From the IMG/VR virus record IMGVR_UViG_3300032261_000051, positions 1 through 30,591 of that record: 30,591 nucleotides of DNA; one strand, given 5' to 3'. The position numbers and the translations under genes are program-made. Origin of the DNA: a virus (Duplodnaviria > Caudoviricetes). The first letter of the stretch is position 1. Every line of letters starts with the position of its first letter. The notes under the pieces are model-generated. The model was given only the letters and a program-made list of their open reading frames with translations. It had not been told where the DNA came from and did not search any database. This document shows positions 5,791-30,591 of the stretch, piece by piece.

Positions 5791-6098
5791 GGAATGGCGT
5801 CCTCATCTAGGGGGGGTGGGCCGGCTGAGATTCCAGCTTCTTCGAGTGCCTGGTGGAGCGCGCGGTTCTTCGACTTGATCTCCAGGATCCAGTATTCGCC
5901 TTGCTGGTAGACGAAGACGCCGAGGCTGTTGAGCTCGGGATGGGCCTCGGCCATCTGCTTGCGGACGTAGTAGAGCTGATGGCGGTAGTAGTTGGCGTTG
6001 GCCTTGAGCTCGAAGGTGAGCTTGAGGGGAGCGCGGAACCAGAGGGCGGCAACTTCGTCCTCGACGGCTTTCGGGGCGTGTGAGCGCGGGGCGGTCAT
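5787..6098 (-). CDS. Hypothetical protein
   Basis: AAGGA SD, ATGA coupling at both ends and GC3 bias. Confidence 0.8.
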   Translation of the reverse strand: MTAPRSHAPKAVEDEVAALWFRAPLKLTFELKANANYYRHQLYYVRKQMAEAHPELNSLGVFVYQQGEYWILEIKSKNRALHQALEEAGISAGPPPLDEDAIP

Positions 6099-6301
6099 TC
6101 GCGGTTGTCCTTTCGAGCTTGGAGCAGGTAGTGCAGCTCCCGAAGGATCTCACTCAAATAGTAGCAGAAGAGAATGAAGCCGGCTCCCATAGTGAGCCAG
6201 CTCCAGTAGATGAGCCCGAGACTGACAGCGACGAAGGATGCGACGGCGCAGGCGGTCAGGAGCACCATGTGAGTGAGGGAGGATGGCTCGGGGGCGAACA
6301 T
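6095..6301 (-). CDS. Small membrane protein (two hydrophobic segments)
   Basis: VLLTACAVASFVAVSLGLIYWSWLTMGAGFILFCYYL; coupled start and stop. Confidence 0.75.
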   Translation of the reverse strand: MFAPEPSSLTHMVLLTACAVASFVAVSLGLIYWSWLTMGAGFILFCYYLSEILRELHYLLQARKDNRE

Positions 6302-7276: not shown

Positions 7277-7482
7277 GGCACGACCTTCACGATTACGTAC
7301 CGCGGGGTGTTGGCTCCTTCTGTGATTTTGCGGTAGACGATGTTGAAAGCCTTGGCGAATGGGGACTCAGTGCCATAGGCGTATTTGAGATCCTTGGAGA
7401 CGTTGAGGGATTCGTCCATTGTGAGCTCGACCATCTCAGCCTTATCGATGGCCATGAGTTCAACTTCGTAGATCGTTTTCAT
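7273..7482 (-). CDS. Hypothetical protein (MKTIYEVELMAIDK...)
   Basis: ATGA coupling; protein-like composition only from ATG 7482. Confidence 0.75.
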   Translation of the reverse strand: MKTIYEVELMAIDKAEMVELTMDESLNVSKDLKYAYGTESPFAKAFNIVYRKITEGANTPRYVIVKVVP

Positions 7483-7556
7483 CGTTGGAGGGTTCCAATG
7501 AGCCAGGCGTAGAAGCCGAAGATGAGGATGAGCACGAGGGCGGTGTCGTAGGTCAT
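7479..7556 (-). CDS. 25-aa single-pass membrane peptide MTYDTALVLILIFGFYAWLIGTLQR
   Basis: Hand translation; GGAGAG SD; ATGA overlaps at both ends fill the gap exactly. Confidence 0.7.
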   Translation of the reverse strand: MTYDTALVLILIFGFYAWLIGTLQR

Positions 7557-7780
7557 GGCGTGGGCTCTCTCCATTCGCCTTTGCGCAGGATGTCGAGGCG
7601 CTTTGAGATTGCGAGAGTCCGGGCTTCGTGATCGGCTGCACCGCTTGCGGAGACGGCGTTGCGCAGGGTGGTCTCGAGGCCGAAGAGCGCGGCTCGGTGT
7701 AGGATCTTTGGTGAGAGCTTTGAGATGTCGGCTCGGAACATCTCACCTCGGATTGTGAATGAGATGATGTTTGTGCGCAT
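7553..7780 (-). CDS. Short paralogue of 8826-9461 (AALFGL...NA...GEW domain)
   Basis: Shares the AAxFG-x5-NA-xS...R-xxx-[LF]RxG[EQ]W pattern; GGAG SD. Confidence 0.75.
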   Translation of the reverse strand: MRTNIISFTIRGEMFRADISKLSPKILHRAALFGLETTLRNAVSASGAADHEARTLAISKRLDILRKGEWREPTP

Positions 7781-9705: not shown

Positions 9706-9867
9706 CTAGTCGCTGGCCAAAATCCACCCGGCGTACGAGCCGGCTACGCCGATCGTACCTAGTCCCGGGAAGACTGCCTCAGATATAGCATAGGCTGACA
9801 GCCCTGTCAAGCCCAAGATGACGAGCTTGGCGAACACGACTCCAGCCTCACGCAAATACCATTGCAT
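9706..9867 (-). CDS. 53-aa hydrophobic protein MQWYLREAGVVFAKLVILGLTGLSAYAISEAVFPGLGTIGVAGSYAGWILASD
   Basis: Hand translation; GAGAGG SD; lies between a promoter plus leader hairpin and a terminator-like hairpin. Confidence 0.65.
   Translation of the reverse strand: MQWYLREAGVVFAKLVILGLTGLSAYAISEAVFPGLGTIGVAGSYAGWILASD
9782..9810 (-). promoter_or_regulatory. Sigma70-like promoter TTGACA-N17-TATATC with an overlapping palindrome
   Basis: Consensus -35, TG before the -10, and a TGACAG-GG-CTGTCA dyad over the -35. It lies inside the 53-aa ORF. Confidence 0.45.
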
Positions 9868-10864: not shown

Positions 10865-11231
10865 CGCGGCCCCCCCGGGGCCGGAGCAGCAGGCCGGCAT
10901 CGTCACGGTGAGTCTCTTCGTGACGAACTTCGATCAGACGAGCATGCTTCGCTGGGATGAGCCCGTCGACTGCCCCCAGGGCCGACCCTGCCAGACCCCC
11001 GGCACGCAGCTCCAGGCCCAGACCCCGACGCTCCAGGATCCCTGCCCGGACGAACCTGAGGTCTTCCTCACAATCCGGACAGGGAACCCGAACTTCTGGC
11101 AGGGCGGCTACGTTGTCCCCGGGTCTCAGATCCAGCTCAAGATCGTCCTGCCCACGTCTCCGATCCCGGCGGCGGAGCGCCACATGCTTCCGCCCCGGCC
11201 GGTGCCCGGGCCAACGGATCGGATCGCCTGA
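10824..11231 (+). CDS. Hypothetical protein, distant paralogue of 10484-10864
   Basis: Shared EPEV...T..P motif; stop coupled to the terS ATG. Confidence 0.75.
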   Translation: MAAKNPERHTAAADAAPPGPEQQAGIVTVSLFVTNFDQTSMLRWDEPVDCPQGRPCQTPGTQLQAQTPTLQDPCPDEPEVFLTIRTGNPNFWQGGYVVPGSQIQLKIVLPTSPIPAAERHMLPPRPVPGPTDRIA

Positions 11232-11716
11232 TGTCGCCTCCGGCCAAGATCCTCTGGTGGTACGAGCGGCTGGCGGACTCGCTCATCGCGAACCCGCAGC
11301 TGACGCTGGGCGAGATCGCTGCGCAATTTGGGTGCACCCAGGCTTGGCTCTCGACCATCAAGAACTCCGACGTCTTTAAGGAGTACTGGACCCGGCGGTC
11401 GAACGAGGCGAGCAAGGACCTCCTGGGCGAGCTCCGAAGCAAAGGGATGGCGGCAGCTGAGATGGCAGTCGACGCCTTGAACCGCCGACTTGAGCTCGAG
11501 GCCGACTCGCTCCCCATCCCGACTCTCCTCGAGGTGGCCGACATCAGCATGAAGAGGTTCGGCTACGACAGCGGCGGGAAGAAGGGCCAGGCCCCCACGG
11601 TGAACAACTTCAACCTGGGCGTTGTGACTCCCACGGAGCTGGCCGAGGCCCGCGCGCGGATGCGGGCGCTGCGCTCCGAGGTGCTGGAGGCGTTGCCGAA
11701 TGGAACAGAATCGTGA
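11231..11716 (+). CDS. terS: Probable terminase small subunit (N-terminal HTH)
   Basis: TLGEIAAQFGCTQAWLSTI helix-turn-helix, a helical middle, and position upstream of the large terminase. Confidence 0.7.
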   Translation: MSPPAKILWWYERLADSLIANPQLTLGEIAAQFGCTQAWLSTIKNSDVFKEYWTRRSNEASKDLLGELRSKGMAAAEMAVDALNRRLELEADSLPIPTLLEVADISMKRFGYDSGGKKGQAPTVNNFNLGVVTPTELAEARARMRALRSEVLEALPNGTES

Positions 11717-12089
11717 GGCATGCTTTGCAGTGGTTAAGGAGGAGCAGGCCAAGGATCCGCACCCTGGTCCTGATGTTTTTCTTTCTCGTTGGACTCGTTG
11801 CCGGTGCGACTCCCTCCCTGCTGGTCTTGATCTCTTCGTCCTTGACACAGCACTTGTATGTGGGGAGGAGCCAACACTTCGGTGGCTTGAACTCTCCGCG
11901 GGCCCCGGAGTTAATCCTGCTGCGGTTCCCTCACGTCCCGTGATCCTGGACCTCGAGAGCTACCGCAAGCGCGCGCTCCGCAGCCGCCCGGGCTGGGTCG
12001 AGTTCCATACGAAGTGGGTCAACCGGACCCTTCGGGTGAAGAAGAAGGCGGTTCGAATGGTGAACGCGGTGTTGGAGGGCAAGGGGTGA
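11700..12089 (+). CDS. Degenerate glycosyl hydrolase 108 (lysozyme)-like protein
   Basis: CDSLPAGLDLFVLDTALVCG and WVEFHTKWVNR match GH108 and its C-terminal motifs. The catalytic EGGY motif is absent. GGAGG SD upstream. Confidence 0.65.
   Translation: MEQNREACFAVVKEEQAKDPHPGPDVFLSRWTRCRCDSLPAGLDLFVLDTALVCGEEPTLRWLELSAGPGVNPAAVPSRPVILDLESYRKRALRSRPGWVEFHTKWVNRTLRVKKKAVRMVNAVLEGKG
11713..11943 (+). CDS. Overprinted +1-frame membrane protein (76 aa), holin/lysis candidate
   Basis: GTG overlaps the terS stop (GTGA). A basic N-terminus precedes LVLMFFFLVGLVAGATPSLLVLI. Host-frame third positions are T-rich over this span only. Confidence 0.5.
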   Translation: MRHALQWLRRSRPRIRTLVLMFFFLVGLVAGATPSLLVLISSSLTQHLYVGRSQHFGGLNSPRAPELILLRFPHVP

Positions 12090-13765
12090 GGAACTTCGGC
12101 CCGCCGCCCATAGTGAGTCCTGGCTTCGCCGAAGGCGAAGCAGGCGAAGGAGACGGCCTGCGGAGTGGTGAGCTGCAGGCCGAGCTGCCCGTGCTCGACG
12201 TTGGCGTGTCGTCACCGGGCGGAGGAGAGGGGGGAGCGGTCCGGCTTCCCCCATCTCTTCTTGAGATGGTGAGCCTCGGCGCGACCGACAGCCTCTTCTT
12301 CTGCAAGACGTTCTTCCCCAAGACCTTCCGCCAGGACTTCGCCCCCCTCCATCGCAAGGTGTGGGATCTGCTAGATGACCCGAAGGCTCGCTTCCCGAAC
12401 ATTATCCTACCTCGGGACTTTGCTAAGACGACTACGCTCCGGGCGTATGCCGGAAAGCGAATTGCATATGGTATCAGCCGAACCGTCGTATACGTGGGGA
12501 AGTCTGAAAAGCATGCTAGGCGAAGCGTTCGATGGCTCCGGATGCAGATCGAGGTCAACAAGCCCCTTGTGGCCGCCTTCGGACTCGGGCCCGGGCGAAC
12601 GTGGACCGATGAGGAGATCGAGATCAAGCATGGCCCAGAAGGCCACAGCGTCTGGGTCATCGCCCTCGGTATCACGGGGTCCACACGCGGCATCAACATC
12701 GATGATTACCGCCCTGACCTTATCATCATCGACGATGTGGTCGATGGACAGAACAGTGCTACGAAGGAGCAGAGAGAGAAGATCGCGGACCTGGTTCTGG
12801 CTGACCTCAAAGACAGCTTGCAACCGGAGACGGAGGCCCCAGATGCTAAGATGGTCCTCCTTAATACGCCACAGGACTTCGAAGACATATCCCAGCGGGC
12901 GCTGAAGGATGAGCAATTCACGAGTGCCAGGTTCCCTTGCTGGACGCCCGAGACCCTTGGGCTCCCGCTGGAATTTCAAGAGTCCGCGTGGCCCGCCAGG
13001 TACCCGAGCGCCGCCCTGCGTCGGGACAAGAAGGGCGCCATCGCCCGGAACAAGCTCAGCCTCTGGATGAAGGAGAAGGAAGTTGAACTCATCAGTCCGG
13101 AGGACTGCGCCTTCAGGCACGATTGGCTCCAGTACTTCGGGATCGATGAGCAGGAGCCCGAGCCGCCCAAGGGCGGCCGCTGGGTCGAGATGGCAATTGA
13201 TCCGGTCCCGCCTCCAACGGAGCAGCAAATTGCTAAGGGTTTTGCGAAGAAGGACTATGAGGCCTTTGTCGTTGCTTGCCGCTGGGACGGGGCTTACTAC
13301 ATTCTGGAGACTATTGCGAACAGGGGCCATGAGCCGAACTGGACCGTGAACACGTTCTTCAGCCTGTGTCTGAAGTGGAACCCGAGGAAGATCATTGTTG
13401 AGACCGTGGCTTATCAGAAGACCCTCGAATGGCTTCTTCGCGAAGCAATGCGAACGAGGGGCCGCTACTGGGTCATCACCCCATTCGACGACAAGAGGAG
13501 AAAGCTCGACGTCATTGTCGACGGCCTTAGTGGCCCTGCCAGCAACGGGCAGCTGTACATCCGGCGGAACCAGTTCGAGCTCATCTCCCAGTTCCTCCAC
13601 TACCCGGGCAAGAACCCGGACGGGGACCACGACGATGTGCTCAACGCGGCGGCCATTGTGGTTGCCAGCCTCGAGAAGGGCCAAGTGAGCCAGGTGCTGG
13701 AGGACCAGTATAAGGAGCTCGAGGAGCGGATCCCGGTGCTCGACTACGAGCGGGGGGCCCCATGA
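12086..13765 (+). CDS. terL: Terminase large subunit
   Basis: Walker A PRDFAKTT, GITGSTRG, Walker B PDLIIIDD, RNase H-like AIDP and HDDVLNA. Start is probably GTG 12086 (GTGA overlap); the frame opens at 12014. Confidence 0.95.
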   Translation: MRNFGPPPIVSPGFAEGEAGEGDGLRSGELQAELPVLDVGVSSPGGGEGGAVRLPPSLLEMVSLGATDSLFFCKTFFPKTFRQDFAPLHRKVWDLLDDPKARFPNIILPRDFAKTTTLRAYAGKRIAYGISRTVVYVGKSEKHARRSVRWLRMQIEVNKPLVAAFGLGPGRTWTDEEIEIKHGPEGHSVWVIALGITGSTRGINIDDYRPDLIIIDDVVDGQNSATKEQREKIADLVLADLKDSLQPETEAPDAKMVLLNTPQDFEDISQRALKDEQFTSARFPCWTPETLGLPLEFQESAWPARYPSAALRRDKKGAIARNKLSLWMKEKEVELISPEDCAFRHDWLQYFGIDEQEPEPPKGGRWVEMAIDPVPPPTEQQIAKGFAKKDYEAFVVACRWDGAYYILETIANRGHEPNWTVNTFFSLCLKWNPRKIIVETVAYQKTLEWLLREAMRTRGRYWVITPFDDKRRKLDVIVDGLSGPASNGQLYIRRNQFELISQFLHYPGKNPDGDHDDVLNAAAIVVASLEKGQVSQVLEDQYKELEERIPVLDYERGAP

Positions 13766-27016: not shown

Positions 27017-27301
27017 GTGGCACAGATTGCGCTAATTCTGATGCTGGTGTCCGTTGGGGGCATTGCGGGAGGCGGCGGCCTCTGGTACTTCCAGCACGAG
27101 GTGATTGAGACTTGCAACGCGCACTGGCGCAGGGAGATTCAGGATGCGACGCTCAAAGCGCTTAGGACAACGAAGGAGGGAGACCAGGAGCTCGATGCCG
27201 CTCGGGTTCGAGCCCTCCAGGGCCTCGAAGGGGCCCGAAAAAGCGTGGCTCCAGCGGCGGGGGACGTGGGCGTGGCGGGCAGCCAACCTCCGGCGAGGTA
27301 A
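27017..27301 (+). CDS. N-terminally anchored membrane protein, i-spanin (Rz)-like
   Basis: AGGAGGAG SD; a hydrophobic N-terminus followed by a helical domain with one Cys. Confidence 0.55.
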   Translation: MAQIALILMLVSVGGIAGGGGLWYFQHEVIETCNAHWRREIQDATLKALRTTKEGDQELDAARVRALQGLEGARKSVAPAAGDVGVAGSQPPAR

Positions 27302-28766: not shown

Positions 28767-29441
28767 ATGGATCCCACAATGGACCCCAATATGGCGCCAC
28801 TGTTGCTGGCGTTGTTGCAGCAGCAGGGTGGAGCCGCAGCTGCCGGCTACGGGACGCCCGGCGCGACGCCGAGTCCGATGCCAGGGGCGATGCCAGGCAT
28901 GGGCCCGGGACCTGGCGGGACGGCGTTCGACCTGGGGGCGATGCTCCGAGGGCAGAGCCCTGCGGGCACGGCTCCGACGTTCAGCGGCAACTCGCCCACC
29001 CCGCCGCCCCCCGATAATCAGACGGGCTACATGGGGGTGAACCCGATGGCGGGAGTCTCGCTGGGTGGCGCTCCGCCGGGAATGCCGGGAGGCTTGCCCG
29101 GGGGACTGCCGGGAACCACGGTGGCTCCGTTCAGCACGAGCACGCAGAGCCCGGGAGCGACTGGGGGCGTGACACCTGGGATCCCGGGTGTGCCGGGAGG
29201 TGGCGGGGTGCCCTCGACGGCGGCGCAAGCCGCTGGGAACCCGCTGGCGGGTTTGGCGGCCTTCAAGGCTCCGCCGACGCCGCAGCCGATCATGCCGCAC
29301 GCGGGACCGGGCTCGCCGCAGGCGATCCATCCGATGGTGCCCGGGCACGCGGCGACGGCGATGGCCCAACTCCTCAACGCGATCATGGGTGCCCGTGGGG
29401 CTCAGCCGCTGTTCACCCCGCCGGGAGGTAGGTTCGGCTGA
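28767..29441 (+). CDS. Pro/Gly/Ala-rich probable ejection protein
   Basis: GGAGAG SD; low-complexity; between ejection genes. Confidence 0.75.
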   Translation: MDPTMDPNMAPLLLALLQQQGGAAAAGYGTPGATPSPMPGAMPGMGPGPGGTAFDLGAMLRGQSPAGTAPTFSGNSPTPPPPDNQTGYMGVNPMAGVSLGGAPPGMPGGLPGGLPGTTVAPFSTSTQSPGATGGVTPGIPGVPGGGGVPSTAAQAAGNPLAGLAAFKAPPTPQPIMPHAGPGSPQAIHPMVPGHAATAMAQLLNAIMGARGAQPLFTPPGGRFG

Positions 29442-30591
29442 TGGCAGACGACGACCAGTTCTGGCCCGCTGATTGGCTTGGGATCCAGCCGACGGAGGCT
29501 TGGCAGCCCGCGGCTGCGGCTGCGCAGCAGCCGGCGAGCGATACGCCCATGGGCTTGTCCCAGGCCGGGATCGACTACATCAAGGGGAAAGAGGCGTGGA
29601 GGCCGCACGCGTATTATGATGGGAGCCAGTATTCCATTGGGTGGGGCTCGAAGGCGAACAATCGGAATGAGGTGATTGATCAGGATGAAGGCGAGCAGCG
29701 GCTGCGGGCTGAGACACAGCCCTTGTCGGACTGGCTCAATAAGAATGTGGGCCCGCTGACGCAGGGGCAGCATGATGCGCTGGTCTCTTTCGGCTACAAT
29801 ACGGGCCAGGGAAATCTGGCGAAGCTGAAGGACGACATCAACGCGGGGGACTGGCAGCAAATCACGGAGCGGATGAAGTCGTTCAACAAGGCTCCGAGCT
29901 TCCCCGAGGCGCAGAGGCCGGGGATCGAGCGGGCGCTGCTGGCTCGGAGGACGGAAGAAGGGCAGATGGCCCTCGGTGGGCAGGGTCCCGCGATCGGGGG
30001 GCCTGCGATGGCAATGGCTGGGGCGCAGCCCCAGGGGGCGCCGCAAGCGGCGGCTGGAGCACCCGCGGCACCCGGTCGAACGGCAATGCGTCTTGGAGGA
30101 CCTCCAGTGGCAACCGCGACAGATGATGGCAGCGATCTTGGGTCGAATTTGCAGCAGAAGCCGAGCTTGATGAGTGTGCTGTCTGCCCCGGGGATGCAGG
30201 CGGGCCTGCTGGCGGCGGCGTCGAGCCTGCTTCAGGGAGGTTGGGGTGGGACTGGATCGGCATTTGGCAGGGCGCTGGGAGCGGCGGGAGAGGCGGCGGG
30301 CTCTTCGCAGGCGTACCAGACGGCGCAGGAGCAGGAGAAGCAGAAGATGGCCCAAGCTAAGGCCATCTCGGATGCACATAATGAGACGCAGCTTGAGGTT
30401 GCGAAGATCCATGCGCAGAGCCTGAAGGATGTGGCCCAGCAGCGGGCGATCAATAGGAACGATCCCGAGTGGGTCAAGATTCACACGACGCTCCTGAACG
30501 ATCCAAAGCTTATCACAATGGATCCGACGGAGAGGTATGCGATGACGATGAAGCAGGCGGATGAGATCTACTTGCATATGAAGGGGACCAC
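29441..30591 (+). CDS. Ejection protein with an N-terminal GH24 phage lysozyme domain, truncated by the window edge
   Basis: Not in the ORF track. Hand translation gives LSQAGIDYIKGKEAWRPHAYYDGSQYSIGWG...LTQGQHDALVSFGYNTG...LLARRTEE; TGATG coupling. Confidence 0.88.
   Translation, partial: MADDDQFWPADWLGIQPTEAWQPAAAAAQQPASDTPMGLSQAGIDYIKGKEAWRPHAYYDGSQYSIGWGSKANNRNEVIDQDEGEQRLRAETQPLSDWLNKNVGPLTQGQHDALVSFGYNTGQGNLAKLKDDINAGDWQQITERMKSFNKAPSFPEAQRPGIERALLARRTEEGQMALGGQGPAIGGPAMAMAGAQPQGAPQAAAGAPAAPGRTAMRLGGPPVATATDDGSDLGSNLQQKPSLMSVLSAPGMQAGLLAAASSLLQGGWGGTGSAFGRALGAAGEAAGSSQAYQTAQEQEKQKMAQAKAISDAHNETQLEVAKIHAQSLKDVAQQRAINRNDPEWVKIHTTLLNDPKLITMDPTERYAMTMKQADEIYLHMKGT

Follow-up and report, generated by a model that had tools for sequence, protein, structure and literature searches.

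Lysis genes that are read out of frame within another gene are already known. In 1999, Loessner and colleagues reportedly described a holin-like gene that lies out of frame within ply187, a gene of Staphylococcus phage 187; phiX174 E is an overprinted single-gene lysis protein, and MS2 L has a basic N-terminus. In excerpts of the published accounts, Ply187 is described as probably a virion-associated lysin (PMC6023083), the o-spanin Rz1 of lambda as lying within Rz in the +1 frame (PMC6139136), the sgl genes of ssRNA phages as mostly embedded in the +1 frame of rep (PMC7693330), and the releasin gp25 of Mu, a phage that has no holin, as a small lysis helper tethered to the membrane (PMC9239132).

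Here we compare with these systems a phage locus in which a short open reading frame (ORF) lies in the +1 frame of a GH108-derived gene. Likened by description to ply187, it differs in that its host gene is catalytically eroded. With lambda Rz1 it shares the same-strand +1 embedding in a lysis gene; however, the host gene is not an i-spanin, the relatives have separate spanin genes, and the +1 protein has no cysteine among its 76 aa and hence no lipobox, so that an o-spanin of the Rz1 type was rejected. The single-gene lysis proteins (MS2 L, the embedded sgl genes), as far as the excerpts describe them, are likewise small, de novo, unconserved, single-helix and in the +1 frame, whereas the present locus belongs to a dsDNA tailed phage of ~46-48 kb, a close relative of which keeps an endolysin and spanins. 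Mu releasin, in the excerpts, differs in having an N-terminal helix and a cytoplasmic domain and in serving a SAR endolysin; this comparison is again by description, and the +1 protein matches no family. What sets this locus apart is the host gene, a conserved pseudo-enzyme, together with a series of intermediates; literature listings yielded no description of such a host gene, nor of such intermediates. Our preferred reading, to which we assign a probability of roughly 0.4, is that this GH108 gene, conserved in spite of its lost loop, carries an overprinted single-pass inner-membrane lysis protein that would act like a holin or regulate one.

A +1 reading frame between terS and terL

The window, by which we mean the whole stretch of DNA that was analysed, is a 30.6 kb record (67% complete, found in soil metagenomes) with terminase, SU10-type portal, capsid and adaptor genes on its plus strand. 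The GH108-derived gene (11700..12089, +; 129 aa, ATG start) encodes a protein without the catalytic loop and with a basic C-terminal helix, and a GGAGG ribosome-binding site (11686..11690, +), recognised from its sequence, lies 9 nt before the ATG. The terS-like (terminase small subunit-like) gene at 11231..11716 (+) was assigned from its position, from homologs upstream of terL in G001-G004 and from a match to phrog_2538 at E=0.014 only. On the other side lies terL (terminase large subunit; 12086..13765, +; phrog_38, E=1e-58), whose ORF is open from 12014 and whose start is likely GTG 12086, overlapping the GH108-like stop; terL of the relative L006 begins with sequence matching the window terL from this GTG. 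Overlaps of -4 are common in this phage (6 of the 21 true junctions listed).

The +1 ORF (11713..11943, +; 76 aa) starts 13 nt after the main start, with a GTG in the GTGA (11713-11716) that also contains the TGA stop of the terS-like gene. It encodes a basic N-terminus, one hydrophobic helix and a short polar tail, and its best 19-residue window on the Kyte-Doolittle hydropathy scale (KD19) reaches 2.33 at residues 22-40 (11776..11832, +). An earlier note on this DNA had described both ORFs, the GTGA start at the terS stop, and the basic N-terminus with its hydrophobic stretch, all of which we found as described.

Four distinct short-form relatives are available as DNA, L005, L006, L007 and L008, with 72%, 51%, 53% and 42% identity to the window main frame, giving five loci with the window. 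Further DNA loci are the long eroded forms L009 (with its near-copy L010) and L011 and the intact GH108 genes of L020 and L078; in all of them a GH108-type gene lies between terS and terL. The DNA-level counts leave out P0002-P0007 and P0009, seven relatives (69-81% and 46-52% identity) represented by protein sequence only. Among 80 capsid-linked loci, L078 alone added a GH108 gene in the terS-terL slot beyond the phages already sampled. In the terL tree, the window, L005, L006 and L008 group together at 100/100, L009 and L011 form the sister group (89/84), and the intact pair L020/L078 falls outside; L007 was omitted, its terL being a fragment. G001 and G005, which share 99.9% identity and overlap at each end, represent a single phage, and its capsid is 88% identical to that of the window. 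The intact GH108 genes lie at 3316-3894 of L020 and 4705-5229 of L078, and elsewhere both phages have a full lysis cassette of M15-endolysin, holin and spanins, which gives them two wall hydrolases.

The earlier note had allowed that the +1 frame might be interrupted in close relatives; it is open and hydrophobic in all four distinct relatives with DNA. Across the five short-form loci the ORF is kept (5/5), its GTG overlaps the TGA of the upstream gene, and it encodes proteins of 69-84 aa with a net-basic N-terminus and KD19 values, a measure of hydropathy only, of 2.2-2.8. The upstream gene varies, being terS in L005 and the window and a small ORF in the remaining three loci, while the junction is constant, and +1 is the only one of the five alternative frames that is stop-free in all five loci. 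A hydrophobic +1 ORF is absent from the intact GH108 genes in the same slot (0/2; L020, L078), the L009 frame is open but not hydrophobic, and that of L011 is borderline (z 3.3, P 0.045). Intact L020/L078, eroded long L009/L011 and the loop-deleted clade with its hydrophobic +1 frame would form a datable gene-birth series by overprinting in a tailed phage.

The +1 frame of L011 (2412-2741) has an internal ATG and a signal-like helix that ends in a lipobox-like LLSC and is followed by a 22-residue tail, possibly an embedded lipoprotein or an earlier overprint stage. The M15-type endolysin gene of G003 also contains an 80-aa +1 ORF (L039 17632-17871) whose C-terminal helix is hydrophobic (KD19 2.36); this ORF may be due to chance or be a second embedded membrane gene.

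No homolog or family match was found for the window +1 protein, and one of the five copies, that of L006, touches the holin PHROG phrog_198 at E=0.04. None of seven such +1 sequences (0/7) occurs in a collection of 15 billion proteins. Gene callers miss the +1 protein, so phage genomes regarded as 'holin-less' may hide holins in the same way.

Should the +1 gene be real, we would put even odds on a role in lysis. The protein fits the small holin-type format (at least one membrane helix by hydropathy, 69-84 aa, location with late genes) and matches no described holin family. In our preferred reading, it would be made by re-initiation at the GTGA, coupled to the upstream stop, and is predicted to adopt an N-in, C-out topology. 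In what is the weakest step, it would accumulate late in infection and permeabilise the membrane or set the timing for a separate intact endolysin; the dead GH108 protein might, at a guess, be a non-catalytic cytoplasmic partner whose basic C-terminal helix binds an anionic ligand. An i-spanin was rejected, since the tail after the helix has just 28-46 aa, is polar and unconserved, and forms no long periplasmic coiled coil.

The dual-coding evidence fits equally well with a real +1 protein that has a non-lytic membrane role, such as superinfection exclusion or tethering of the dead GH108 or of packaging or assembly proteins. The position between terS and terL, with the canonical lysis slot far downstream, is consistent with such a role, as is the presence in five relatives of another membrane gene that could be the holin. 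However, with a membrane gene ahead of GH108, intact in L020 and L078, the slot resembles a second lysis-type cassette, and we hold a non-lytic role to be somewhat unlikely.

Codon usage over the overlap

The earlier note had reported T-rich third positions over about 11720-11940. The excess is real, with third-position T in 31 of the 77 overlapped codons as compared with a fraction of 0.06 in the 48 codons past the +1 stop, but it is not even, being concentrated in ~25 codons over the helix (15 T, 0 A). The level over the 77 codons is reached in none of 908 windows of that length from 15 other window genes (maximum 0.34). Over 36 codons, the excess of third-position T (T3) gives z=6.2, 4.9, 2.6, 4.5 and 4.7 in the five loci, while z lies between -1.6 and 0.1 in their C-terminal part. 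Under synonymous recoding with the codon usage of each own genome (20000 trials per locus), the probability of a hydrophobicity (KD) at least as high as observed is 0.0001, 0/20000, 0.005, 0.0017 and 0.00005. Pooled over these related sequences, four-fold sites in the helix stretch show 51 T to 3 A; the corresponding counts are 236:149 for reference genes and 18:21 for the 25 codons that follow. The bias is T-specific and A-depleted and ends after the helix. Because synonymous codons in this stretch are just 42% identical between loci, T-richness persists while the sites turn over. In 26 other window genes, none of the 79 +1 segments that are free of stops reaches KD 1.8, and the +1 hydrophobicity shared by the window and G001 is 2.33 here and at most 0.73 in nine orthologous genes. 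Although individual residues of the +1 frame are replaced across the clade, its basic N-terminus and single hydrophobic helix persist. Dual coding, as the earlier note had proposed, is the best account of the codon pattern, and from the sequences we consider the +1 ORF to be probably a selected, translated gene.

A check of synonymous-site constraint, which the earlier note had suggested, revealed no suppression in the main frame over the overlap: pS is 0.71 in the overlap, 0.64 over the helix and 0.67 outside, values whose nearness to saturation limits power. The +1-frame pN/pS of 1.07 and 0.87, compared with 1.17 in the control part, likewise gave no residue-level conservation of the +1 protein. 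The open +1 frame is by itself weak evidence (null P 0.01-0.34 per locus), the five +1 loci share ancestry, and conservation of the GTG is not independent evidence because an Arg and the upstream TGA force it. Chance hydrophobic shadow ORFs were also seen in the relatives.

The +1 ORF could itself be such a shadow: a hydrophobic +1 frame follows mechanically once third-position T is raised, whether by drift or by a local T-rich signal in the DNA or RNA (attenuator, pause site, unstructured mRNA). When T3 is raised evenly over the overlap, the null attains the observed hydrophobicity in 22%, 1%, 5%, 15% and 1% of trials and thus accounts for much of it, the hydrophobicity being no longer rare in two of the five loci; the case therefore hinges on why T3 is high. 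The absence of synonymous-site suppression is in keeping with a shadow, as is the weak +1 ribosome site (-3.3 kcal/mol in 4/5 loci; in the window, the duplex energy is -9.3 kcal/mol at the GH108-like frame site and -3.3 at the +1 start). A terminator-like hairpin with a T run also lies within the overlap (11752..11781, +), at the same offset in the window and L007 (2/5 loci). However, L005, L006 and L008 have no such plus-strand hairpin inside the gene, and the excess covers ~75 nt at third positions only, is depleted in A and ends abruptly. In addition, 2889 control windows contain no comparable shared patch (maximum 9/25, versus 13). We regard a shadow as an unlikely explanation.

Lysis genes of the window and its relatives

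In G001/G005, the dead GH108 gene and its +1 ORF coexist with an intact GH108 endolysin followed by i-spanin-like and o-spanin-like genes, indicating that the dead copy is not the lytic enzyme. The start of this endolysin shows no evident hydrophobic signal (KD19 0.83) and, by established lysis models, the enzyme would thus need a holin. Holin families match none of 45 hydrophobic ORFs of G001/G005, and the candidates are the +1 protein and the upstream 85-aa helix-plus-coil protein. The holin PF23987 is present in G002, G004 and G007, three phages without a hydrophobic +1 ORF, and was not found in G000, G001, G005 and G003, three phages with a clear or borderline one, a complementarity that is suggestive only, the three phages on either side being related and mostly incomplete.

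A conserved 84-95-aa helix-plus-coiled-coil protein without a Pfam family is encoded between terS and the GH108 gene in L006 (284-559), L007 (554-808), L008 (5056-5313), L009 (3330-3605) and L011 (1925-2212). This membrane protein could be a holin; its gene is missing from the window and L005.

The lysis slot holds an endolysin and spanins, with a holin in some, in G003, G004, G005 and G007, and is empty in G002. In the window its sole gene is a shortened i-spanin-like one (27017..27301, +; 94 aa), and there is no endolysin or o-spanin there. This gene was identified by slot comparison and by its 38% identity over 68 aa (E=1e-13) to a G005 protein that matches Rz-like spanin PHROGs, and it and the +1 ORF are the only ones on the late strand of the late region with a KD19 of at least 1.9. 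A change of host, or relocation, may account for the missing cassette.

With this reduced slot and no upstream membrane gene, the window might rely on the +1 protein for single-gene lysis, one of the two roles, next to that of a holin, that the earlier note had suggested; the protein would block wall synthesis or trigger autolysis and replace the endolysin in this phage, and its basic N-terminus and one helix in the +1 frame resemble the ssRNA-phage lysis genes of the excerpted account (PMC7693330). However, the record is incomplete, and G001/G005, the nearest relative sampled in full, has no need of such a role, as it combines the +1 ORF with an intact endolysin and both spanins. G002, in which three family searches found no recognisable active endolysin either, nevertheless has no hydrophobic +1 ORF. 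We regard single-gene lysis as very improbable, and only marginally less so the broader proposal that in this phage lysis has passed to a de novo gene inside a dead endolysin, which acts as a single-gene 'protein antibiotic', and that the dead GH108 belongs to a widespread pseudo-lysozyme family with its own job.

Several other genes of these phages were observed. The window gene at 29441-30589 likely encodes an ejection protein that begins with a GH24 lysozyme domain (PF00959, E=2e-16); PF00959 was not found in G002, G003, G005 and G007, and by eye the G005 counterpart appears to be without the domain. Small hydrophobic ORFs lie on the early strand at 6098-6301 (-), 7482-7574 (-) and 9709-9867 (-), and a scan of all but the 31-aa one gave no family match. 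G001 encodes an outer-membrane beta-barrel protein (L036 10202-10861; PF13505, E=2e-11), and L011 2942-3586 resembles, by eye, a similar secreted barrel protein.

A GH108 protein without its catalytic loop

The descent from GH108 that the earlier note had proposed for the main frame was borne out. The GH108-like motifs that it quoted are found in the 129-aa frame, which matches the endolysin family phrog_315 at E=2.4e-5 and triad-bearing relatives such as P0029 at E=2e-8; a main frame lacking GH108 similarity, the other outcome that it had allowed for, is not what we found. Profile comparison with GH108 agreed in part, as a profile of eight homologs matches SagA (7dnp) at E=9e-4 but the PF05838 score of the frame is below the curated cut-off (12.2 vs 21.2 bits). 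The AlphaFold model of the protein is of modest confidence (pLDDT 67.8), and its top Foldseek match is again 7dnp, with a probability of 0.97 and a TM of 0.53, but E=0.39. Over the C-terminal two thirds, the sequence and, at this modest confidence, the predicted fold resemble those of GH108 muramidases (PF05838 with PG_binding_3; SagA 7dnp, TtsA-type).

In excerpts of the SagA account, the catalytic Glu17, Asp26 and Thr31 (Glu-x8-Asp-x4-Thr) lie in one alpha1-alpha2 loop (PMC8334348). Compared with intact L020 in the same slot, the window protein is without ~40 residues spanning this loop; the catalytic Asp and Thr are gone, together with most wall-binding residues, in line with the catalytic erosion described in the earlier note. 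In the profile alignment, SagA Tyr69 and His92 become Arg30 and Val53, with Val in place of the Asn/His motif, and SagA residues 112-121, the DAP-binding loop, have no counterpart. The Phe and Trp of the substrate site are kept, Phe102 and Trp106 matching SagA Phe151 and Trp155. Unlike the muramidases, the window protein has a basic RKR...W.NR C-terminal motif that is common to many triad-less relatives, and its last 45 aa contain 13 K/R and 3 D/E. From these losses, the main frame is very probably catalytically dead, and its product would neither cut nor bind peptidoglycan in the usual manner. An active atypical muramidase using the retained Glu15 region is scarcely credible. The window, L005 and L006 do retain a Glu and Asp-Pro close to the start, and Phe102 and Trp106 match, but P0007, L008 and P0009 do not have the Glu, the loop with Asp26 and Thr31 of the excerpted SagA account (PMC8334348) is deleted, and Arg and Val occupy the Tyr69 and His92 positions.

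The eroded gene is maintained under purifying selection, with a main-frame pN/pS of 0.35 in codons 82-127, the single-coding part, and its ribosome site is good in 4/5 loci. Erosion is family-wide: by a crude pattern, 70 of the 94 protein matches have no triad, and ~35 of the 94 are of loop-deleted length, some of them truncated gene calls. We therefore rejected the idea that the overprint caused the erosion, as triad-less GH108 proteins are common and occur in L009 without a hydrophobic +1 frame; the erosion likely predates the overprint. The triad-less proteins, widespread and still conserved, look like an apparently undescribed pseudo-lysozyme family, whose members annotation would label endolysins. 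Dozens of 50%-identity clusters of triad-less GH108 homologs (P0009-P0090) share a basic RRR...W[TS]NR.NR C-terminal motif.
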